Source: Verrucomicrobiota bacterium
GTDB lineage: Bacteria > Verrucomicrobiota > Verrucomicrobiia > Chthoniobacterales > UBA10450
DNA length: 64,000 nt
Assembly (NCBI GenBank): GCA_003218475.1
Contig: QHNR01000106.1
Location: 1,388-65,387, forward strand
Reading direction: 5' to 3'
The position numbers and the translations under genes are program-made. How positions within the stretch are numbered: position 1 is the first letter of the stretch; each line of letters opens with the position of its first letter. Shown in pieces: positions 12,871 to 60,715 of the stretch. The notes below the pieces were generated by a model. The model was not told the DNA's origin. It searched no databases and saw only the letters and a program-made list of their open reading frames with translations.

Positions 12871-14709
12871 GTGAATCTAAGCAATTTCCTAGCCGAACTG
12901 AAGCGGCGCAATGTCGTCCGCATGGCTGGGCTTTATCTCGTCGGCGCATGGCTGCTCACTCAGGTCGCGAGCACCGTCCTGCCGATGTTTGGCGCTCCGG
13001 ATTGGTTGCCCCGCAGCATCGTCAGCCTGCTGGCAATTGGTTTCGTTCCGACGCTGATCTTTAGTTGGGTCTTCGAACTGACCCCGCAAGGCTTGAAGCG
13101 CGATGAGGACGTAAGGCCGGAGGAATCAATCGCGCCACAAACTGCGCGGCGCATGAATCGCATGATCATCGCCGTGCTGCTGCTCGCACTCGGATATTTT
13201 GTGTTCGACAAATTTGTCCTGACGCCACGGCGCGAAGCGGCGCTCCTTGCGGCTCGGACATCGACGGAACCCAAATCTGTACCCAGCGCCAAGTCCGTCG
13301 CCGTGCTGGCCTTCGCCAATCTCAGCGACGACAAGGGCAGCGAATATTTTTCAGACGGAATCAGTGAGGAGTTGCTGACTGTGCTGCAAAAAATTCCCGG
13401 CTTGCACGTCGCCGCGCGGACCTCAGCGTTTTCCTTCAAAGGCAAGAATGCGACGGCGCAGGAGATCGGGCAGAAACTCGGCGTGGCGCGTCTGGTCGAG
13501 GGAAGTGTGCGCAAGGCCGGCGACGTTGTGCGTATCGCGGCCCGGCTCACTCGCACGGACACGGGCGAGCAACTTTGGTCAGAAAATTTTACGCGCGATT
13601 TGAAGGACGTGTTCGCCGTCGAAACCGAACTCGCCCAGACCATCGTCGGGCAGTTGAGCGGTCAGCTCACGGGTGGCGCCGCGGATCCGGCTGCGAAGGC
13701 GGAAATTCAAGCGCAGGTGCAGGCGGCGGAAAAGGGCGGGACGAAAAATGTGGAGGCCCACGAGCATTATCTGCAGGGCCGGTTTTATAGTGATCGCCAT
13801 TCGGAAAAAAGCGCTGCTGAGGCCCTCGCTGCTTATCAACAGGCAGTGGAGCTGGACCCCGCCTTCGCGCTCGCATGGGCGGGCCTTGCCCTAACGCACG
13901 TTTGGTACTGCGAGTTTTCCACCGAGGCGGGACGAACCGGTTTCGATACCCATCTGGCAGGAGCGCGAGAAGCAACGGCAAGGGCTTTGTCCCTCGAGCC
14001 TAACCTGCCGGAAGCGTTGCTCGCCCGCTCGGAGATTGAGCTCAATTTCGATTTTGACTGGAAAGGTGCGGCCGAAACATTACGAAAGGCGCTGAGTCTG
14101 GCCCCCGCAGATCCGGCGCTCCGAATCGCCGCGGGCAACCTTGAAACAGCTCGCGGGGATATGACTCGGGCCATCGACCTCTATCGCCAGGCCGTCGCGT
14201 TGGATCCCGTTAACCCGCGAGCCCGTTCGTTCCTGGCGTTCAACCTGGCGGTGGCCGGTCGGTTTTCCGAAGCGCGGGCGGAATTTCCGAGGGTTGTGGA
14301 GTTGAATCCGGCGGCGCCTTGGGCCCATGCCGGTCTCGGTCTCGCCTTCCTCATCGAAGGAAAGTTCGAGGAGGCGGCGGTCGCTGCGCGAGACGATGCG
14401 GGCGAGTGGGCCCGGCTTCTCATAGTGGCATGCGCCTATTGGGGCGAGAAACGAATCCCGGAATCAGATGCGGCGCTTGCTCAGTTAACCGCGACCTTCG
14501 CCGATACGGCAGCTTACCAGGTCGCCGAGGTCTATGCGTATCGCGGGGACAAGGATCAGGACTTCGAGTGGCTCGAGCGCGCGCGCCGGCAGCGCGACGG
14601 GGGTCTGGCCGGTATGCGGAGGGATCCGCTCCTCGCGAACCTAAAAACGGACCCGCGCTGGAATGCATTCTTGCAAACGATCGGCCTGGCCGACGACCAA
14701 TTGAAATGA
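12871..14709 (+). CDS. paralog P2: 2-TM anchor + TolB-N-like + TPR
   Basis: GTG start. FLAELKRRNVVRMAGLYLVGAWLLTQ...SWVFELTPQGLKRDED, KSVAVLAFANLSDDKGSEYFSDGISEELL, TPR region, tail DPLLANLKTDPRWNAFL. Confidence 0.8.
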   Translation: MNLSNFLAELKRRNVVRMAGLYLVGAWLLTQVASTVLPMFGAPDWLPRSIVSLLAIGFVPTLIFSWVFELTPQGLKRDEDVRPEESIAPQTARRMNRMIIAVLLLALGYFVFDKFVLTPRREAALLAARTSTEPKSVPSAKSVAVLAFANLSDDKGSEYFSDGISEELLTVLQKIPGLHVAARTSAFSFKGKNATAQEIGQKLGVARLVEGSVRKAGDVVRIAARLTRTDTGEQLWSENFTRDLKDVFAVETELAQTIVGQLSGQLTGGAADPAAKAEIQAQVQAAEKGGTKNVEAHEHYLQGRFYSDRHSEKSAAEALAAYQQAVELDPAFALAWAGLALTHVWYCEFSTEAGRTGFDTHLAGAREATARALSLEPNLPEALLARSEIELNFDFDWKGAAETLRKALSLAPADPALRIAAGNLETARGDMTRAIDLYRQAVALDPVNPRARSFLAFNLAVAGRFSEARAEFPRVVELNPAAPWAHAGLGLAFLIEGKFEEAAVAARDDAGEWARLLIVACAYWGEKRIPESDAALAQLTATFADTAAYQVAEVYAYRGDKDQDFEWLERARRQRDGGLAGMRRDPLLANLKTDPRWNAFLQTIGLADDQLK

Positions 14710-14892
14710 GCGCCCGCTAAATGCCTAACGAGTCGCGCTTCGGCGATAAGATAATTCTGCACTCTGAGCGATGAACTCTCGCCATTTCGGTTCCGAATTG
14801 CGTCGGCACAATGCTGACAAAGTCACCTTCGCGAATGTAGTCGACTAATTCAGTTCGTTAAGTCTCTGGTTTCCGGATACAAATACTTGCCA

Positions 14893-15620
14893 ATGCTGGC
14901 CCCCGAGTCTGCCTCCGACGTAAAATTCGAGATTGGTCATGTCTTGTTCATCGACATCGTGGGTTACTCCAAGCTGCTCATTCACGAGCAGAGCGAGCAG
15001 ATGCAGACGTTGCGAGAAATCGTGCGCGGCACGGAGCAGTTCCGCCTGGCTGAAGCCGAAGGCAAACTGCTGCGCTTACCGACCGGCGATGGTGGCGCGC
15101 TTGTGTTTCGCACTAGCCCCGAAGCGCCGGTCCGCTGCGCGCTGGAAATCAGTAAGGAGCTCAAGAAGCATCCCGAGCTTCGGGTGCGAATGGGAATTCA
15201 CAGCGGTGCGGTCAATGAAATCAGCGATCTGAACGAACAAGCCAACATTGCCGGCGCTGGCATCAACATCGCGCAGCGGGTTATGGATTGTGGCGATGCC
15301 GGTCACATCCTGCTATCACGGCATGTCGGGGAAGATTTGGAGCAATATCCGCGGTGGCGCTCGCTTCTGCGCGATCTTGGTGAGTGCGAAGTGAAGCACG
15401 GCGTCCGCATCTCGTCCTTCAATATTTCGCCATCACAGCAGCGTGGGCGGGCGAGAAGAAGCTTGCCTTGCAACAACTGGAAGCTGGGCTGCGTGCTCCC
15501 GCCGCATCATGGGCGCTGAGCTACGGTGCCTTAAAACTGCACCCCTTCTGGGACCCGCTCCGCGGCGATCCGCGCTTCAAAAAAATCGTAGAGTCCCTCG
15601 CGCCGAAAGAGAGACACTAA
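14893..15620 (+). pseudogene. paralog P3: class III cyclase head joined out of frame to the family C-terminal tail (internal deletion of TM/TolB-N/TPR)
   Basis: Cyclase blocks LFIDIVGYS, LPTGDGGALVF, RMGIHSGAV, GINIAQRVMD run up to VKHGVRISSFNI (about 15420). From about 15425 a different frame reads ..ITAAWAGEKKLALQQLEAGL..YGALKLHPFWDPLRGDPRFKKIVESLAPK. This aligns with the last ~55 aa of P6. Confidence 0.65.
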
Positions 15621-15687
15621 TTTCACGAATTGTCACCAATCGGACGACGACTCTCGGTTTGATTCGTGTGGATTCGTGAAATTCGTG
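15621..15687. repeat. ATTCGTG heptamer cluster (one inverted copy + three tandem copies)
   Basis: tttcacgaatt ... gattcgtgtggattcgtgaaattcgtg. Confidence 0.8.
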
Positions 15688-15737
15688 TCTACAATCGTCG
15701 CCTCGCTGGCACCGAACTGGCCGACCTCGCCGCAGCG

Positions 15738-15983
15738 CTAAACAGGCTGCAGTTTGCGCTCGTTCTGAATGACGATCGTCGGGTTCGGATTGCTCGGCGG
15801 CACTGGCAGGCCCTGCTGACGAATCACCTCGACGTGATCTGCCATTCCTGAGCGTGCCTTGTAAACGCAGTCCTCGATAGAGTGGCCGATGCCTGTGAAT
15901 CCCTCCAGATCCGGTGAGTAGAAGCCAAAAAAATCCGGATCGTCGGTCGCTTCGATAATGAGTGAATATGGCAATGTGATCAT
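15738..15983 (-). CDS. hicB: HicB-family antitoxin (short form, no obvious DNA-binding extension)
   Basis: MITLPYSLIIEATDDPDFFGFYSPDLEGFTGIGHSIEDC.. is a typical HicB N-domain. Starts 3 nt after the hicA stop. Confidence 0.8.
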   Translation of the reverse strand: MITLPYSLIIEATDDPDFFGFYSPDLEGFTGIGHSIEDCVYKARSGMADHVEVIRQQGLPVPPSNPNPTIVIQNERKLQPV

Positions 15984-15985
15984 TT

Positions 15986-16171
15986 CTATTTCAGTCCTGC
16001 AGCTTTGAGTATTGCATGGCACGTGCCGGTCGGCACCTCTTTTGCGCCGTGGAAATCTACACGAATCAAGCGGGGATGACCAGTCTTGACATAGTAGCGG
16101 ATCGAGCCTTTCTCTTTTATCAGCCGGAATCCATTTTGCTCCAGCAGTCGCACGAGTTCAGTGAACTTCAT
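15986..16171 (-). CDS. hicA: HicA-family mRNA interferase toxin
   Basis: MKFTELVRLLEQNGFRLIKEKGSIRYY...HGAKEVPTGTCHAILKAAGL. Canonical hicA-hicB gene order. Confidence 0.8.
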   Translation of the reverse strand: MKFTELVRLLEQNGFRLIKEKGSIRYYVKTGHPRLIRVDFHGAKEVPTGTCHAILKAAGLK

Positions 16172-16193
16172 CTGCTTGCAGCATAACAAGAGC

Positions 16194-16331
16194 ATGGAAA
16201 CCGCTGCAAGCCGACGCGAACATCAACGCTGGGCTGAACCGCTGCTCCGGCTCGATCCGATGTTCGATCTGCTCCAGAATGATCCGCGCTTCCAAAAACT
16301 CGCCGAGTCGGAAGCGCCGAAAGACAATTAA
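16194..16331 (+). pseudogene. orphan C-terminal tail relic of a TPR paralog
   Basis: My own translation gives ..AEPLLRLDPMFDLLQNDPRFQKLAESEAPKDN*. This matches the family tail (DPLLDSLHGDPRFEALVQRVVAPK) and has no upstream body. Confidence 0.4.
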
Positions 16332-16394
16332 ACTACGGATCACCCGCCGTCGCCGATGCTACGGCGGGCAGGCACGGATAAAACGGATGAAGAG

Positions 16395-16450
16395 ATGATT
16401 CACGAGGAGTTGAGCGACAAAATCATCAGGGCCGCAATGGATGTGCCTTT
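16395..16450 (+). pseudogene. 5' fragment of a GxxExxY-family gene, truncated by the hairpin repeat
   Basis: MIHEELSDKIIRAAMDV resembles the conserved N-terminus of the GxxExxY family as I recall it. The frame then runs straight into the GTCATGTCGAGCGG repeat. Confidence 0.35.
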
Positions 16451-16478
16451 GTCATGTCGAGCGGAGTCGAGACATCTC
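16451..16478. repeat. GTCAT-CGAGCG hairpin repeat (left flank of GIY-YIG cassette 1)
   Basis: gtcatgtcgagcggagtcgagacatctc, 14 nt upstream of the GIY-YIG start codon. Confidence 0.85.
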
Positions 16479-16492
16479 TAAATTTCTGATTC

Positions 16493-16780
16493 ATGGCGCG
16501 TGATTACAACTTCTGGGTCTATATCATTACCAACAGGAACCATTCGGTTCTTTACATCGGGGTGACGAACCGCCTCTCTCGCCGGACTTATGAGCACCGC
16601 GAAGTTGCCAAGGTGGGGTTCGCTGCCAAATATCAGTGCAAAAACCTTATCTATTACGAACATTATCGCGACATCCGCGGCGCGATCGCTCGAGAATCGC
16701 AATTGAAGAAATGGTCGCGAGCGAAGAAAAATCGGCCTGATCAATCGATTGAACCCACGTTGGGAAGACCTTGGTGCTGA
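16493..16780 (+). CDS. GIY-YIG nuclease family protein (COG2827/UPF0213-like)
   Basis: FWVYIITNRNHSVLYIGVTNRLSRRTYEH...LIYYEHYRDIRGAIARESQLKKWSRAKK. Confidence 0.85.
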   Translation: MARDYNFWVYIITNRNHSVLYIGVTNRLSRRTYEHREVAKVGFAAKYQCKNLIYYEHYRDIRGAIARESQLKKWSRAKKNRPDQSIEPTLGRPWC

Positions 16781-16885
16781 CGTGTTATATGAGATTTGAT
16801 TCGCTCATTTCCCATTCGCTCAGCCTCCGGCCTTCCCGTCGATGTCGCGGCTTCCCAAGCCGCTCCATTCTCGACACTGTGGAGT

Positions 16886-16933
16886 TTACCCTGAGCGAGC
16901 GAAGCGAGTCGAATGGGCTACGCTCGAAATGAC
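16886..16933. repeat. inverted copy of the hairpin repeat (right flank of GIY-YIG cassette 1)
   Basis: accctgagcgagcgaagcgagtcgaatgggctacgctcgaaatgac. The reverse complement begins gtcatttcgagcgtagc. Confidence 0.75.
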
Positions 16934-17020
16934 AGAACGCCCGATTGGAATGGAAACGCGTATTGCGCCCGCGAGAAGCTGCCGAACACGACACGCCTGA
17001 TTTTTATGCCTGAGCCTTGC

Positions 17021-17048
17021 TTATCCGTGCTATCCGTTTAATCCGTGG
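17021..17048. repeat. ATCCGTG heptamer triplet
   Basis: ttatccgtgctatccgtttaatccgtgg. Confidence 0.8.
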
Positions 17049-17099
17049 TTCTTTTCAGACTTTCAAAAAATCGTCGTCTCGGCCGCGGCAAAAGAATAG

Positions 17100-19431
17100 G
17101 CTAGAGAGGGTTGCTCTCAGCCAGTAAAGTCCCGCTTCACGGCTGACGAGCACAAGGCGAAGCGCCTGGAGATCGCGCACGTGCTCTTCATGGACATCGT
17201 CGGCTACTCCATGCTGCTGACCGACGAACAATCGGAAGCGCTTCAGGAGTTGAACCAGATCGTGCGCAGTACCGAAGCGGCGCGCGAGGCCGAGGCTGCA
17301 GGAGAGCTTACTGTTTTGCCGACGGGCGATGGCATGGCGCTGGTTTTCGCCGGTTCAGTGGAACAGCCGGTCGAATGCGCCTTGGAGATTAGCCAAGCTT
17401 TGCGCGCGCAGCCGAGTCTGCCGGTGAGAATGGGAATCCACAGCGGCCCGATCCATCATGTGAAGGATGCAAACGGACGCGAAAACATTGCCGGCGTAGG
17501 CATCAACATCGCGCAGCGAGTGATGGATTGCGGCGACGCCGGCCACATTCTCGTGAGTAAACGCGTCGCCGACGATCTCGCGCAACACCGTCGATGGCAG
17601 CCGTACATCCATGAACTGGGCGACGTGGAAGTGAAACACGGAGTTGTTGTCTCGTTAGTTAATCTTTACGCCGAAACAATTGGCCAATCCCACGCCGCCG
17701 ACGCGGCTCGGAAAAGCCAGCGGCACCATCCGCAGTTCCAGAGTTAGGACACGCAAAGCACTCTCTCCGCTTGCCCGAGCGATCTTCATCGTCGCGGCGT
17801 TACTCCTCGCGCTTGCCATCGTGTCAGTAATTTTTGCGCCTGCGATCCTGCGGTCGCTCGGAAAAAGCCAGGTAACATCATCACCCCAGGTTCCAGCCAT
17901 TCCATCACCCCCGTCTCTCGCCGATACCATTAAGAGCGCAGTCGCCAAGCAGATCACCGATGAGTTGCAGGGCGAACTTTCTCGTAAGAAAAACGCCGCG
18001 GTCCAGCCACCTCCTACCGGTTCGGCGATCCCAGAGAAAAGCGTCGCTGTTCTGCCGTTCGACAATCTTAGCCGCGACCCGGACAACGCTTACTTTTGCG
18101 AAGGCGTGCAGGACGAGATTCTCACTCGTCTGGCAAAGGTATCAGACTTGAAAGTCGTTTCGCGTACATCGACGCAGCATTTCAAAAGCTCTCCAGATAA
18201 TCTGCCACAGATCGCGAAGCAGTTGGGTGTGATGCACGTCCTCGAAGGCAGTGTGCAGAAGTCTAACGATCAGGTGCGCGTGAATGTGCAACTGATCAAC
18301 GCGCTGACCGACGCGCATCTTTGGGCCGACACATACGATCGAAAGCTTACCGACATATTCGCGGTCGAAAGCGAGATCGCGAAAACGATTGCTGACACGC
18401 TACAGGCGAAGGTGACGGGCTCGGAGAAACAAATGATGGCGGCGCAGCCGACGAGCAACACGGAGGCGTACGAGCTTTATCACAAAGGAAAATCGCTGTG
18501 GGAGAAGCGTTCCGGTGATAATATTCCAAAAGCGATCGCCTATTACGAGCAGGCGATTGCGCGCGACCCGAATTATGCGCTGGCTTACACAGGTCTGGCC
18601 AAAGCCTATATCCTGCTCCCTTTTTACACGGGTGCGGACCGGCTCGATGCAGGCTCGAAGGCCAAAGACGCGGCACTCAAAGCTCTCCGTCTTGATCCCA
18701 ATCTGGCCGAAGCGCACGCCGCGCTCGGCAAGGTACTCTTTTTTCGCGAGATCGATTTGGCCGGCGCCATGCGCGAATACAAACGCGCGATCGAACTCAA
18801 TCCGAACGACGCGACGGCACATCATTGGTTCGGCAACGACAGCCTGGCAGCCCTCGGACGATTTGAGGAGGCCATTGCCGAAGGCAAGCGCGCGATTGAG
18901 TTAGATCCGCTGTCCACAGTTATTAACGTGGACCTGGGTGAAACCTTCTATTACGCCCACCGCTACGACGAGGCTGAGAGGCAAATGCGAAAAACCCTCG
19001 AGATTGATCCAACATCCTTCTACGCGCACTATAATCTCGGCATCGTTCTTCAATTAAAAGGCGACTTGTCTGGCGCGATTGCCGAATACAAAAAGGCAAA
19101 GCAATTAGGCGACAATCCACTTGTGTCGACGCTCTGCGCTCAGGCTAAAGCTCAGGCTGGCGACAAGGATGCCGCGCTGCGAATGCTGAGCGATCTCGAT
19201 AAGATAAGTCAGCACCGCGAAGTGGTTGGCTACTTGCGCGCTCTGCTTTATCTCAGCCTGAACAATAAAGATGAAGCACTGCGCTGGCTCGAACAGGGTT
19301 TCGCGGAACGCGATGGCTCCAATATCTGCTGGATCAAAGTCGATCCATTGCTCGATTCATTACACGGCGATCCGCGCTTCGAAGCGCTGGTCCAAAGAGT
19401 GGTCGCGCCGAAATCAGAAGCGAAGCAGTGA
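17100..19431 (+). pseudogene. paralog P4: class III cyclase head + TM + TolB-N-like + TPR, split by a frameshift and lacking an upstream ATG
   Basis: ORFs 17181..17747 and 17680..19431 overlap in different frames. Removing one base near 17682-17686 gives ..VNLYAETIG-NPTPPTRLGK.., a continuous protein. The homologous N-terminal region (..EHKAKRLEIAHVLFMDIVGYS) is open from 17100 with no ATG, and the first canonical start is the GTG at 17181. Confidence 0.7.
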
Positions 19432-39761: not shown

Positions 39762-40084
39762 AGGAAGCCGATTTTATCGGCGCGCGCCCCGCCCGCAAGC
39801 GAGCCCCGTAGTTTTAGAGGCGACCGCGGATTACCCGCCTTTGCCTAAGCTCCGGCGCGGCACGCGCGGATAAAACTGATAGAGATCCAGCAGCAAACAA
39901 TGGCAAGAGGACAGATGGCGCGACAGGCTCGCCACGGGACGAGTCCGTCCGACTGGCGGACAGGATGCCTGCGCTACGAGTGCAGCGCCCACATGTTAAT
40001 GCCGCGCTGGAAAACGTTGTCCCGAATTCGTCTGGTTGTTCGTCGTACTCATAAAGAACGAAATCAGCGACGAGGGGGCAAAGT

Positions 40085-48854: not shown

Positions 48855-49979
48855 TCACGCGATCTTTTTCCGGAACTGCAGCGCGCAGAGAATGAACAGC
48901 AGGTTGGACATCACAATGAGTACGGCAAGATTTGGCCAGTATTCGAAAAAATTTGCGCCACGCAGGATGATTGCCCGCATCAGCGCGATGAAATAAGTCG
49001 TGGGGAAGAGCGCACCGAGCGCGTAAAAGATCCACGGCATGGTTTCTCTGGGAAAAATAAAACCGGAAAAGAAAACGCTCGGCAACAAAAACACCATCGA
49101 CATTTGGAGCGCCTGCATTTGGTTTTCGGCCTTGGTCCCAACGAGCAAACCCAGGCTAAGCAACGCAAACACATACACGAGTGTCGAAAACATCATCGCG
49201 AACACACTGCCGACAATTGGGACGAAAAAAACGAACCGCATGATCGTGAACAAAACCAGCGCCATCGCCATACCGATGCACAAATATGGAACCAGCTTGC
49301 CGAGCATCAGGCCTGCGCGGCTCAACGGGCTTACCAGTAGTTGCTCGAGCGTGCCGCGTTCGCGTTCGCGCACCAGGGCCATGGCGGCAGCAACCGTCGT
49401 CCCGATTTGCAAGACGACTCCAATCACGCCCGGCACAAAAAAGTTCGGGGCGCGCATTGCCGGGTTGTAAAGCATTTGAGGACGGACATCGATCGGCATC
49501 CCCTGCCGTCCGGTCTCACGCAAAAGCGATTCCAGTGATTGCGTCAGCGCCACGCCCAGTCCGGTCTGAAGAGCCTGCAAGGCGGTAGTGGAATTGGATC
49601 CGTCGACAAGCAATTGCACCTGCGCGGAGTGCCCCGCCATCAGTTCGCGAGTGAAGTTTGGCGGGATATCGAGCGCGGCGTAGGCGCGGCCTTTGCGCAT
49701 TTCGCTCTTCAGCTGCTCTAAATTTTGCACTTCGCCCACTACACGAAAACTCTCCGTGTTCACAAAACGGTCGATCAACTGACGGCTCTCGACGGTGCGA
49801 TCCTCGTTCAAAACGAGCATCGCCATGTGTTTCACGTCGTTATCGAGCGCGTAGCCGAATGCAATCATCTCGATCAGCGGCGGGAAAAAAAAGAAAAAGA
49901 GAGTCAACGGATCGCGCCAGACTACGATGAACTCCTTAAAGAGAATTGCACCGAGCCCGCGAAAAAGTTTGTGTTTCAT
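48855..49979 (-). CDS. ABC-2-type transporter permease (YbhS/YbhR-like)
   Basis: 374 aa. N-terminal cytoplasmic segment, one TM, a large loop, then 5 C-terminal TM segments. Last gene of the TetR-HlyD-ABC operon. Confidence 0.85.
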   Translation of the reverse strand: MKHKLFRGLGAILFKEFIVVWRDPLTLFFFFFPPLIEMIAFGYALDNDVKHMAMLVLNEDRTVESRQLIDRFVNTESFRVVGEVQNLEQLKSEMRKGRAYAALDIPPNFTRELMAGHSAQVQLLVDGSNSTTALQALQTGLGVALTQSLESLLRETGRQGMPIDVRPQMLYNPAMRAPNFFVPGVIGVVLQIGTTVAAAMALVRERERGTLEQLLVSPLSRAGLMLGKLVPYLCIGMAMALVLFTIMRFVFFVPIVGSVFAMMFSTLVYVFALLSLGLLVGTKAENQMQALQMSMVFLLPSVFFSGFIFPRETMPWIFYALGALFPTTYFIALMRAIILRGANFFEYWPNLAVLIVMSNLLFILCALQFRKKIA

Positions 49980-49988
49980 GTTTCCGCG

Positions 49989-50131
49989 GTCATCCCAAGC
50001 GAAGCGAGGGACCTCTCATAGGCATACAAAAGCTTCAAACTACCATTGATCATCTTCGCCTCGTCGATCTTCAACTGATTGCAGTAAACGCGGATTCCAA
50101 ATGTGCGATCCTTCGCTCCGCTCAGGATGAC
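49989..50131. repeat. 143-bp IR-bounded element, copy A
   Basis: Starts 10 nt upstream (operon sense) of the permease ATG. Confidence 0.85.
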
Positions 50132-50172
50132 AGCATGGCCCCGCGAAAAGGTTGTCGTTTCATTTTAAGTGG

Positions 50173-50493
50173 TCATCCCGAGCGAAGCGAGGGACCTCTC
50201 ATATGTTGAAAAAGCATCGGCGATAAATCCGCCCACTTCGGGTTCATCCTCTCGACTAATGCATTCTTCTTTTCGCGGCGCCATCCCTTGATCTCCTTTT
50301 CCCGCGCGATTGCGTCCCGAGGATCACTGAAACGTTCGTAGTAGAAGAGTCGATTAACTTTGTAGGTCTTAGTAAAACTTTCTATTTCGCTCTTCTGATG
50401 CTGCCAGACTCGTCGCATCAAGCTGTTTGTAATGCCTGTATAGAGAACCACTCGGCTGCGATTGGTCATCATGTAGACATAGAATGCTTTCAT
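50173..50493 (-). CDS. GIY-YIG nuclease family protein (COG2827/UPF0213-like)
   Basis: FYVYMMTNRSRVVLYTGITNSLMRRVWQH...LFYYERFSDPRDAIAREKEIKGWRREKK. The C-terminal codons (MRGPSLRSG) are encoded by a hairpin half-repeat. Confidence 0.85.
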   Translation of the reverse strand: MKAFYVYMMTNRSRVVLYTGITNSLMRRVWQHQKSEIESFTKTYKVNRLFYYERFSDPRDAIAREKEIKGWRREKKNALVERMNPKWADLSPMLFQHMRGPSLRSG

Positions 50494-50522
50494 CAGTTGG
50501 CGGGGCCTCGCTTCGCTACTCT

Positions 50523-50665
50523 GTCATCCCGAGCGAAGCGAGGGATCCCTCATCGGTCGGCAATATTTTCAAATTACGCTGGATTATCTTCGCTTCGTTG
50601 ATCTTCAACCGATCGCGGTAAACCCGCATTCCAACTGTCAGGTCCTTCGCTTCGCTTAGGATGAC
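50523..50665. repeat. 143-bp IR-bounded element, copy B
   Basis: Ends 10 nt from the ATPase stop codon (50676-50678). Confidence 0.85.
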
Positions 50666-50675
50666 ATTCATCACA

Positions 50676-51635
50676 TCATGCGGCTCTTTGTTGTTCGCCA
50701 GCGTGCTTCGCTGAAAGCTCAACAAACACGTCTTCGAGCGAAGGACCTATTTCGTGAATCTCTACATGACTGATGCCGACCTTGCGCAGTTGTTCCTCGA
50801 TCTGCGCGCGCTTCACGGTTTCATCAACCAGCAAATGCATCGATTGACCGAAGACTGTGGCGCTGCGAACGCCACGCATTTGGTGCATGGCTTGCAGCGC
50901 TGTGGTCACGTGATCGCACGTCACGTCGAGTCGGCGCGTTCCCGGCGGATTTACCCCTGGCAGTTTTTTTAACTCGTCCGGCTCGCCGCATACGATCAAC
51001 TTGGACATGTAAATGTAGCCGACGTGATCGCACCGCTCCGCTTCATCCATATAATGAGTCGTGACGAACAGGGTCATGCCTTTCCCAGCAAATTCGAAGA
51101 GCAAATCCCAGAGTTCACGCCGCGCGACCGGATCGATGCCCGCCGTCGGCTCATCGAGAAAAAGCACGGTGGGTTTGTGCATGAGCGAGCACGCCATCGC
51201 CAGACGTTGACGCCAGCCGCCGGAAAGTTGCGCAGCACGCCTGTCGATGTACGGCTGAAGATGCGTTGTGGCGATCATTTCGTCCCGCCGCTGGTTCAAT
51301 TCGCGACCGCTCAGGCCATAAAGTTTTCCTGCAAAGATGAGGTTCTCATTCACGGTCAACTCGTCGTACAGCGAAAATTTCTGCGACATATAGCCAATCA
51401 TTTCCTTGATAGGCTCCAGATCGCGCACAATGTCGTGGCCGCCGATTCCCGCCGTCCCCTGCGTTGGCTCCAGAATCCCGCACAACATCCGGATCACAGT
51501 TGTTTTCCCGGAGCCGTTCGGGCCGAGAAAGCCGAAGATAGAGCCTTTCCCGACGGAGAACGAAACGTGATCAACTGCTGTGAATGTACCGAAACGCTTC
51601 GTCAGCCCTTCAACTTCGATCATTGCTTCAGCCAT
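50676..51635 (-). CDS. ABC transporter ATP-binding protein (YbhF-like, single NBD)
   Basis: GPNGSGKTT, LSGGWRQRL, LFLDEPTAGID. Confidence 0.9.
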   Translation of the reverse strand: MAEAMIEVEGLTKRFGTFTAVDHVSFSVGKGSIFGFLGPNGSGKTTVIRMLCGILEPTQGTAGIGGHDIVRDLEPIKEMIGYMSQKFSLYDELTVNENLIFAGKLYGLSGRELNQRRDEMIATTHLQPYIDRRAAQLSGGWRQRLAMACSLMHKPTVLFLDEPTAGIDPVARRELWDLLFEFAGKGMTLFVTTHYMDEAERCDHVGYIYMSKLIVCGEPDELKKLPGVNPPGTRRLDVTCDHVTTALQAMHQMRGVRSATVFGQSMHLLVDETVKRAQIEEQLRKVGISHVEIHEIGPSLEDVFVELSAKHAGEQQRAA

Positions 51636-51673
51636 AAGTCAGCACAAACTCGGGACTGGTATCTTCGCCAACT

Positions 51674-51736
51674 AAACACACGAACTACACGAAACGAATT
51701 CAAAACAACCCTTTCGTGTTTTTAGTGTGTTTCGTG
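51674..51736. repeat. CACGAA/TTCGTG imperfect hairpin cluster between the hlyD-like and ATPase genes
   Basis: aaacacacgaactacacgaaacg ... tttcgtgtttttagtgtgtttcgtg. Confidence 0.75.
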
Positions 51737-60644: not shown

Positions 60645-60715
60645 GTCATTCCGAGCGAAGGCGAGGAATCTCTCGAAGTTAAATCCAGAGATGTCTCGAC
60701 TTCGCTCGACATGAC
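60645..60715. repeat. solo 71-bp hairpin of the GTCAT-CGAGCG family (no nuclease gene)
   Basis: gtcattccgagcgaaggcgaggaatctc ... gagatgtctcgacttcgctcgacatgac. Lies between the divergent rlmI-like gene and purC. Confidence 0.85.

Follow-up and report, generated by a model that had tools for sequence, protein, structure and literature searches.

Introduction

Small GIY-YIG nucleases encoded beside repeated DNA hairpins have been described in Neisseria, where NTS (an extended form of dRS3, CGTCATTCCCGCGMAVGCGGGAATCYRG) and SRM repeats flank the gene ssnA (Chenal et al., 2025, Nat Commun; PMC11893778). The SsnA protein of Neisseria meningitidis, a 94-amino-acid single-domain GIY-YIG nuclease (cd10448, GIY-YIG_unchar_3), binds the hairpin on single-stranded DNA only, not on RNA, and nicks a few nucleotides upstream of it; mutagenesis identified the three nucleotides 5' of the palindrome and the C directly 3' of it as key determinants (PMC11893778). 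Homologs were collected in that study at a tblastn threshold of E<1e-10, and its authors compared the NTS-ssnA-NTS layout to IS200/IS605 and to repetitive extragenic palindrome (REP) systems. Palindromic repeats that carry a CGTC or TGTC tag, the Neisseria dRS3 among them, had been reported earlier without a dedicated transposase (Di Nocera et al., 2013, BMC Genomics; PMC3733652). The present analysis concerns a related arrangement in a 64,000-nucleotide stretch of DNA from a Verrucomicrobiota bacterium (contig QHNR01000106.1; hereafter the window, to whose positions all coordinates refer), in which a GIY-YIG gene, giy1, lies between inverted copies of a tagged hairpin repeat, R, inside the apparent remains of a second cassette.

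This locus is very probably a decaying Ssn-type module, in which cognate tagged hairpins stand on either side of a single-domain GIY-YIG nuclease gene; these hairpins would form a divergent class of SRM. The pairing of enzyme and repeat was published in 2025, and the finding is real and mostly already explained. What is new is that R lies outside the published SRM pattern, that most of its copies belong to REPIN-like doublets with no gene, that a second gene of the window, giy2, is fixed in an operon, and that a frameshifted giy1 sits inside a gutted cassette.

The giy1 gene and its flanking hairpins

The limits of giy1 (16493-16799, plus strand) were set from its match to Pfam family PF01541, from alignment with Neisseria SsnA and from an intact ortholog at comparison locus L072 (L-numbers denote such loci throughout). 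The original prediction placed a GIY-YIG gene at 16493-16780, and the open reading frame called there, on the plus strand, does match PF01541 (E=7.7e-15, residues 7-79 of 95 amino acids). That description was accurate as to the position of the features, but the reading frame is shifted and an insertion of about 95 nt interrupts the right-hand repeat. The gene is divided by tblastn into two pieces in two frames, and the L072 ortholog (L072 1314-1619), 88% identical at the protein level, reads intact in a single frame, which together indicate a +1 frameshift near 16729; the called reading frame consequently stops at 16780, and the restored gene ends at 16799, its product closing with ..KKIGLINRLNPRWEDLGADVLYEI.

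Upstream of the gene, and identical in sequence to its counterpart upstream of the L072 ortholog, is the SRM-like tagged hairpin R(+), which occupies 16450-16480 on the plus strand and reads TGTC-ATGTC-GAGCGGAGTCGA-GACAT-CTC. The repeat gtcatgtcgagcggagtcgagacatctc within it spans 16451-16478, with the giy1 ATG 14 nt beyond, and GTCATGTCGAGCGGAGTCGAGACATCTC ends 14 nt 5' of that start codon. The opposing hairpin, R(-), is on the minus strand and extends over 16800-16934, as judged from the listing of inverted repeats and the alignment with L072; the inverse repeat ...ctacgctcgaaatgac occurs at 16918-16933. A repeat 14 nt upstream and its inverse downstream had been foreseen, and the arms 16450-16466 and 16918-16934 are 88% complementary. 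Relative to L072, in which R(-) is intact (GTCATTTCGAGCGGAGCGCAGCGTAGTTGAGAAATCTCTC), the insertion (roughly 16813-16912) divides the hairpin in its apex, leaving the 5' half, GTCATTTCGAGCGTAGC, at 16917-16933 and the 3' half, GGAAAT.., at about 16800-16812. The insert bears a tag-less R-like hairpin of its own, CCCTGAGCGAGCGAAGCGAGTCGAATGGG, and a search for further copies of it found none. Because giy1 is frameshifted and R(-) is split, this copy is probably inactive now.

The second gene of the window, giy2, is intact, encodes 106 amino acids and is 44% identical to giy1. Both proteins align without gaps to Neisseria SsnA, the restored giy1 product at 43% identity over 90 amino acids (E=6e-26) and giy2 at 39% over 85 (E=5e-21). 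In a 7.3-Gb database giy2 matches a Neisseria gonorrhoeae locus at E=6e-12, whose reading frame is identified as the SsnA ortholog by its length of 94 amino acids, its residues Y6, Y17 and E64 and the NTS repeats on both sides. The catalytic residues are Y10/Y21/E68 in giy1 and Y7/Y18/E65 in giy2, with the same spacings of 11 and 47 residues as in SsnA, and the three residues mutated in the published work (PMC11893778) are invariant in 34 homologs. On the strength of these gapless alignments to the gonococcal protein, the window genes are classed as members of the Ssn family and R as an SRM-type hairpin. The window proteins have no accessory domain. The homologs have reading frames of about 90-135 amino acids, and their profile matches only UPF0213-type minimal GIY-YIG structures. 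NCBIfam contains no specific model for the window proteins; the match to TIGR01453 reaches 17 bits against a cut-off of 56. A defence system was also considered and set aside, as there were no PADLOC matches.

Structure of the repeat R

It is clear that R is not confined to giy1. The sequence GTCATNNCGAGCGNAG, with at most 2 mismatches, has 12 matches in the window against 3.1 expected, a number reached in 0 of 100 shuffles, and the remaining copies of the core fall at 49989-50665, around giy2, and at 60645-60715. The latter, found by sequence search, is a doublet without a gene, consisting of R(+) at 60645-60674, an 11-nt spacer and R(-) at 60686-60715.

Across 74 unique copies the consensus is (T)GTC-A-[4 bp]-GA-GC-GNA-GC-GA-[4 bp']-(T/C)-C-TC, obtained with a search pattern that left the 3' half of R unconstrained. 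Stem pairs 2-5 are formed in 74, 72, 69 and 71 of the 74 copies, through CG, GC, TA and AT pairs, and a T-A pair is present in 74/74 copies and the A-T pair in 35/74. In an automated covariation count 83% of cells are paired, compared with at most 47% when the partner strand is slid, and 0 of 500 shuffles reach the score; this count understates the pairing seen in the parsed alignment, because MAFFT misplaces a one-base insertion in 13 copies. In a search blind to the tag, GTCA preceded 38 of 39 hairpins and 175 of 177 palindromes were followed by a C; these positions coincide with the determinants identified by mutagenesis for SsnA. Immediately 5' of GTC, 47 of the 74 copies have T, 13 have C and 13 have G. 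Two classes of R can be told apart, TCCY..GCGAAGC and ATGTC..GCGAAGTC, and loci without an exact R core retain the same base (GTCAT, stem, GA ... GA, stem', C) beneath a longer, GC-rich apical stem-loop.

The sequence GCGNAGC, in which N may be any base, forms a DNA mini-hairpin with a GNA triloop. The apex of R is thus of a DNA type, which fits recognition on single-stranded DNA. The folding energies of single copies are no better than those of shuffled sequences (z from -1.9 to +0.5); the nearest-neighbour model misses GNA triloops and tandem G.A steps, and covariation was therefore relied on instead.

Readings of R as a known structured RNA were considered and rejected. No Rfam family reached its gathering score anywhere in the window, and a permissive scan of 49900-50750 gave weak C/D-box snoRNA noise only (24 bits against a cut-off of 40). 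Hammerhead-like and K-turn interpretations of CUGA..GA fail in that CUGA is not conserved, many copies having CCGA, and that there is no conserved single-stranded core.

Association of R with ssn genes

The sample for this comparison comprised 80 loci that encode relatives of giy1 or giy2, from at least ten phyla (Verrucomicrobiota, Kiritimatiellia, Acidobacteriota, Chloroflexota, Patescibacteria, Ignavibacteria, Chlorobi, Planctomycetota and others). A strict R adjoins the gene in 70 of the 80, on both sides in 52, and the commonest order is R(+)|gene|R(-), in which the tags are directed outward. Near the gene R reaches a density of 4.8 per kb as against 0.26 per kb in the flanks, an 18-fold difference (P about 1e-138), a statistic that is overstated in that roughly 22 of the 80 loci are orthologous and independent cases number nearer 58. 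The positional association and the flanking hairpins at other GIY-YIG loci on which the original prediction depended were thus both found.

The same figures bear on whether the hairpins might simply act in cis as RNA or DNA elements of a familiar sort (terminators, stabilisers of mRNA, binding sites for proteins) that accumulate between genes and have no functional tie to the nuclease. They are intergenic and often transcribed within operons, and effects of REP-like repeats on mRNA stability are known (PMC3733652). We nevertheless regard this explanation as highly improbable in view of the enrichment at the gene in many phyla, the invariance of the tag and of the 3' C, the absence of a T-run after the hairpin and of any matching Rfam family, and the binding of SsnA to single-stranded DNA and not to RNA (PMC11893778).

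Between R(+) and R(-) copies spaced 120-1500 nt apart a GIY-YIG gene is present in 66 of 86 cases, and a search for other protein cargo between such pairs returned only spans of tandem doublets and ordinary genes that R copies happen to enclose. No protein-coding cargo other than the GIY-YIG gene recurs between R(+) and R(-). When contigs were chosen by the repeat instead (120 metagenome contigs, 647 kb), they contained 210 R copies, compared with 5 in shuffled sequence, and only 4 GIY-YIG genes, every one of which adjoins R. In this sample R occurs mostly in convergent gene-less doublets, 50 in number, with a spacer of 6-71 nt that is often itself a hairpin. The two hairpins of one doublet often differ in stem or apex, and each must therefore fold separately. 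Two copies of a doublet at L177 share 92% identity, with the limits of the similarity falling precisely at TGTCAT and ATGACA. Gene-less doublets far outnumber genes and behave as discrete repeated units; target-site duplications were sought around 88 doublets and none were found.

A gene placed in this way could also have arrived by homing, in which doublets would have existed beforehand and spread by other means, and a selfish GIY-YIG reading frame would cut empty doublets and be copied into the loop during repair. GIY-YIG homing endonucleases are well-established enzymes (PMC1564403), the gene is found where a doublet-like frame has its central spacer, and both the apical and the central loops tolerate insertions. 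Even so homing seems improbable to us: there are only about 4 genes per 210 hairpins in spite of the many empty doublets, the gene stays at a fixed site and evolves under purifying selection (see below), and the protein is without a DNA-binding domain, its characterised members acting on single-stranded DNA only (PMC11893778).

Relatives of ssn were also observed in other settings. At L036, L038, L042 and L043 (about 1875-2480), which are of Kiritimatiellia type, an element of ~600 bp encloses ssn and its hairpins; its terminal inverted repeats are perfect and 23 bp long (CTTCCGGGTTTAGCGTGGGATTT), and ssn is its sole open reading frame; copies 95-99% identical occur at different sites, two of them on one 10-kb contig. 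At L212, L215 and L216 annotated ssn homologs occupy tight gaps between genes, namely the sufB-sufC gap of Azospirillum lipoferum, the gltA-lpxB gap of Sinorhizobium meliloti and, on a Planktothrix plasmid, the gap that separates an MmeI-type restriction-modification gene from the DISARM gene drmA; hairpins lie upstream of ssn at these loci and also downstream in Planktothrix and Azospirillum. Family members other than giy2 thus occur within operons too, the Azospirillum gene being an example.

The second gene, giy2, in its transporter operon

The giy2 gene (50173-50493, minus strand) lies between genes for an ABC ATPase (50676-51635) and an ABC-2 permease (48855-49979). A sequence search showed it to be surrounded by an array of six R hairpins on both strands (49989-50665), at 49989-50017(+), 50103-50131(-), 50172-50200(+), 50498-50525(-, degenerate), 50523-50551(+) and 50637-50665(-). 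In more than 20 species the module has these ABC genes as its neighbours, the flanking proteins being 77-95% identical, and the ratio of nonsynonymous to synonymous substitution rates (dN/dS) for giy2 is 0.03-0.06, with synonymous sites saturated. These values point to strong purifying selection and long-term residence in the ABC operon. The left hairpin is almost invariant whereas neighbouring intergenic bases vary. A search for contigs encoding giy2 yielded this ABC-operon context only, and hence no empty site was obtained.

Several further observations were made around this array. Two of the giy2 doublets contain a 97-nt module (50012-50108 and 50546-50642) whose copies are 82% identical; it has orthologs in about ten species (L011-L023, about 1850-1947), reads ..GMRVYCDQLKINEAKMI.. 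on the ssn strand and matches no family. The segment 50133-50171 is a roughly 80% identical copy of the start of the ABC-2 permease gene (compare 49945-49988; ATGAAACGACAACCTTTTCGCGGGG..); downstream of it, a hairpin doublet stands between this copy and the real start codon. The copy could have arisen by a long target duplication, by gene conversion or through replacement of the 5' end. In another species, at L024 (about 560-640), the same HlyD-ATPase intergenic site holds a different inverted repeat array (CTGGAAGCCAGGAATCCAGGAG ... CCTGGTTTCATGGATTCCAGATT), and the site seems to collect small palindromic cassettes.

The outer GxxExxY cassette

The giy1 unit was proposed at the outset to be bracketed by inverted triplets of CACGGAT/ATCCGTG heptamers and to represent a nested insertion that truncates a GxxExxY-like reading frame after 17 codons, and the comparison with other loci bears this out. 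On the left, the end of the cassette (16329-16388, plus strand) was placed by alignment with L072 and consists of AAACTACGGATCAC, a small hairpin CCCGCC..GGCGGG and CACGGATAAAACGGAT, with three ACGGAT-type heptamers (ACGGAT at 16335, CACGGAT at 16373 and ACGGAT at 16383). On the right, the end ATCCGTGctATCCGTttaATCCGTGGTTCTT (17021-17053, minus strand), placed where the similarity to L072 stops and by the inverted repeats, carries three of ATCCGT type (ATCCGTG at 17023, ATCCGTT at 17032 and ATCCGTG at 17041) and forms an inverted pair with the left end. Over the whole window CACGGAT is not enriched (11 occurrences against 9 expected), and it is clustered at this locus only.

Inside these arrays are two probable remnants of a GxxExxY gene (TIGR04256), both on the plus strand. 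The N-terminal remnant, 17 codons reading MIHEELSDKIIRAAMDV, is at 16395-16445 and is assigned by its position after the heptamer array, which is that of the gene in L018, and the C-terminal remnant, 27 codons beginning QNARLEWKRVLRPRE and running to the stop codon, is at 16933-17013 and is kept in L072. The latter contains ..RLEWKRVL.., which matches the terminal ..KLEWERIVL of the intact L018 protein. Both remnants are too short to match TIGR04256 by themselves. The L018 cassette is intact, encodes a GxxExxY protein (TIGR04256, E=1.7e-34) and ends in inverted arrays of AACCACGAAT-type heptamers, the equivalent of the left one being AACCACGAATCTACACGAATGGACACGAAT. In L072, from another genome, the same composite, an Ssn unit within GxxExxY remnants, has sharp ends at the heptamer arrays and stands in a different genomic context: similarity begins at AAyyACGGATCAC and ends at ATCCGTGGTTCTT, the flanks are unrelated and nothing upstream aligns. 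These data support the view that a GxxExxY cassette with inverted heptamer arrays at its ends had its interior replaced by the Ssn module. The composite seems to have moved as a whole, its extent set by the outer ends, and the outer cassette most likely carried giy1 along as a passenger.

GxxExxY genes (TIGR04256 / PF13366) in several phyla were seen to have inverted terminal repeats, mostly arrays of about three heptamers (L018 547-985, L012 about 478-800, and L217-L223), with TCACCACGGAG..CACGGAG / CTCCGTG..CTCCGTGGTGA as one example and CACGAAT and CGCAGAG as variants. The repeats are clear in four further genomes, from Anaerolineae, Rhodospirillales, Terriglobales and an unclassified metagenome contig that occurs in two samples; two of these have three-heptamer arrays, one has a CGCAGAG/CTCTGCG array, and the Anaerolineae locus has a single 15-bp inverted repeat. 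At a fifth locus, L223, the repeats are degenerate only. The window also contains gene-less miniature pairs of heptamer arrays at 51673-51735 and 15622-15690, the first of which is the exact site of the full cassette in L018 and L012. At 39827-39886 there is an 81% identical copy of the left arm of the outer cassette (CCCGCC..GGCG hairpin, then GCGGATAAAAC) with no right arm or gene visible. No published description of a heptamer-array GxxExxY cassette was found in the literature.

Directly upstream of the locus is a HicA toxin and HicB-like antitoxin pair (15738-16195, minus strand; PF07927, E=3.8e-14 and PF15919, E=7.6e-5, respectively). Paralogous adenylate-cyclase-like and TPR genes form a tandem series at 12871-15620 and 17181-19431, and orphan C-terminal TPR fragments, ending in ..DPRFQKLAESEAPKDN and ..DFQKIVVSAAAKE, flank the cassette at 16161-16331 and 17059-17100. 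These fragments constitute a 75% identical direct repeat, which suggests rearrangement among paralogs around the insertion.

A model for the module and its alternatives

By homology to SsnA, each R would most likely fold locally whenever its DNA becomes single-stranded during replication, repair or uptake, forming a covarying stem of 4-5 bp, a tandem G.A/G.A step and the GCGNAGC mini-hairpin. The nuclease of about 95 amino acids would then bind the hairpin together with the unpaired 5' GTC tag and the C just 3' of the palindrome, and would nick a few nucleotides upstream of the tag. With the tags of R(+)|gene|R(-) facing outward, nicks would be expected on opposite strands, immediately beyond either end. 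The mechanism preferred here, inferred from homology, is that the Ssn nuclease encoded at the locus nicks single-stranded DNA as directed by the hairpin.

Several considerations weigh against this interpretation, in addition to the shared ancestry of some of the loci counted above. The proteins and the R class were read from sequence, and function is assigned by homology. The literal SRM pattern, HGTCWYN(0-2)YYVSBRHN(0-5)WNVSBRGN(0-2)RNCYNB, matches the NTS control, nothing in the window and 0/439 R copies, so that cognate recognition is extrapolated; the failure is due to the GA/GA step, and R would therefore be a divergent class that the published census would miss. The tags in Neisseria face the gene and those of R are mostly directed outward, and the geometry is thus not universal. 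At the flagged locus the gene is frameshifted and its right hairpin disrupted. The best-preserved copy, giy2, is at one locus in more than 20 species, which argues against frequent movement of the gene itself, and neither a target-site duplication nor an R-bounded pair of empty and filled sites was found for the gene-bearing unit.

These last points are also pertinent to a stronger proposal, that R(+)-ssn-R(-) is an autonomous mobile element, a GIY-YIG counterpart of REPtrons, with the nuclease as its mobility enzyme, whose nicks beyond the two outward-facing tags would release or copy the element and also mobilise doublets in trans. The gene sits where doublets have their spacer, the doublets are discrete dispersed units that also occur in arrays, their paired hairpins differ in the manner of left and right ends, and the module extends over at least ten phyla, invariably accompanied by hairpins. 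The CGTC/TGTC-tagged REPs have had no transposase found for them (PMC3733652), and the analogy with REP/RAYT systems in the original prediction also appears in the Discussion of the Ssn paper, whose authors put forward this idea as well (PMC11893778). We consider an autonomous element doubtful, in that strand transfer is not known for any GIY-YIG enzyme, giy2 is vertically inherited at a single site with dN/dS of about 0.05, the two gene-bearing units seen in new surroundings are bounded by heptamer arrays or by a 23-bp terminal inverted repeat and not by R, and the 88 doublets yielded no target-site duplications.

Since gene-less doublets greatly outnumber genes and act as discrete units, the R system resembles that of REPINs and RAYT (REP-associated tyrosine transposase) genes, with one resident enzyme and many hairpin doublets, and it is possible that the Ssn enzyme generates or maintains the doublets. 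A fixed gene together with spreading doublets is also what has been described for RAYT genes and REPINs.

Comparison with known systems

What these observations add is an extension of the Ssn-hairpin pairing to a hairpin class missed by the published pattern, in abundant uncultured soil phyla, and an instance of an ssn gene that can persist in an essential-looking operon under purifying selection while gene-less doublets spread. Taken with the work of Di Nocera et al. (2013; PMC3733652), they supply a concrete candidate enzyme for tagged REPs thought to be without one. A tentative generalisation is that Ssn nucleases are the missing dedicated enzymes that propagate CGTC/TGTC-tagged REP doublets, as a GIY-YIG replicator of REPIN/RAYT type, and that GxxExxY genes with heptamer arrays are another mobile nuclease-plus-repeat cassette able to carry an Ssn passenger. 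The outer cassette may be a separate, undescribed example of the same design. It resembles intact GxxExxY cassettes (L018, L219, L221) in its remnants and its inverted heptamer arrays, and differs from an intact GxxExxY gene (TIGR04256 / PF13366 PDDEXK_3) in that just 17 + 27 codons are left.

The closest parallel is the Ssn/SRM system itself. Shared with it are a single-domain GIY-YIG protein of about 94-106 amino acids, similar to Neisseria SsnA along its entire length and with the same Tyr/Tyr/Glu spacing, flanking hairpins in which an xGTC tag is left unpaired, the stem opens with A-T/T-A and the palindrome is followed by C, and repeats far more numerous than genes. Unlike SRM, R has a tandem GA/GA step with a GCGNAGC apex, or else a long variable apex, and at the centre of its doublets there is a third hairpin; R is hosted by soil Verrucomicrobiota and by further phyla outside the Proteobacteria, and the R class is known here from its sequence alone, whereas Ssn/SRM has been characterised biochemically.

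With the CGTC/TGTC-tagged REPs R has in common the unpaired (C/T)GTC end tag, complementary A and T at the start of the stem, a short tail, an intergenic location and a tendency to form inverted dimers. Those repeats have an uninterrupted stem of 8-9 bp, a loop of 4-5 nt and a CCA tail (PMC3733652), in contrast to the 4-5 bp stem, two G.A mismatches, 2 more bp, 3-nt loop and CTC tail of R, in which the stem reaches nine positions only when both G.A steps are counted. GIY-YIG homing endonucleases differ from the window proteins in possessing an extra DNA-binding domain, and their genes lie in an intron or beside a cognate target gene, whereas the genomic contexts of the ssn relatives are unrelated to one another. 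The likeness to REP/REPIN-RAYT systems lies in one resident, vertically inherited nuclease gene, inverted hairpins that flank it, many gene-less doublets and, by analogy, a tagged hairpin that would be recognised on single-stranded DNA; the enzyme is of the GIY-YIG type and not an HUH Y1 transposase, and the tag is GTC and not GTAG.

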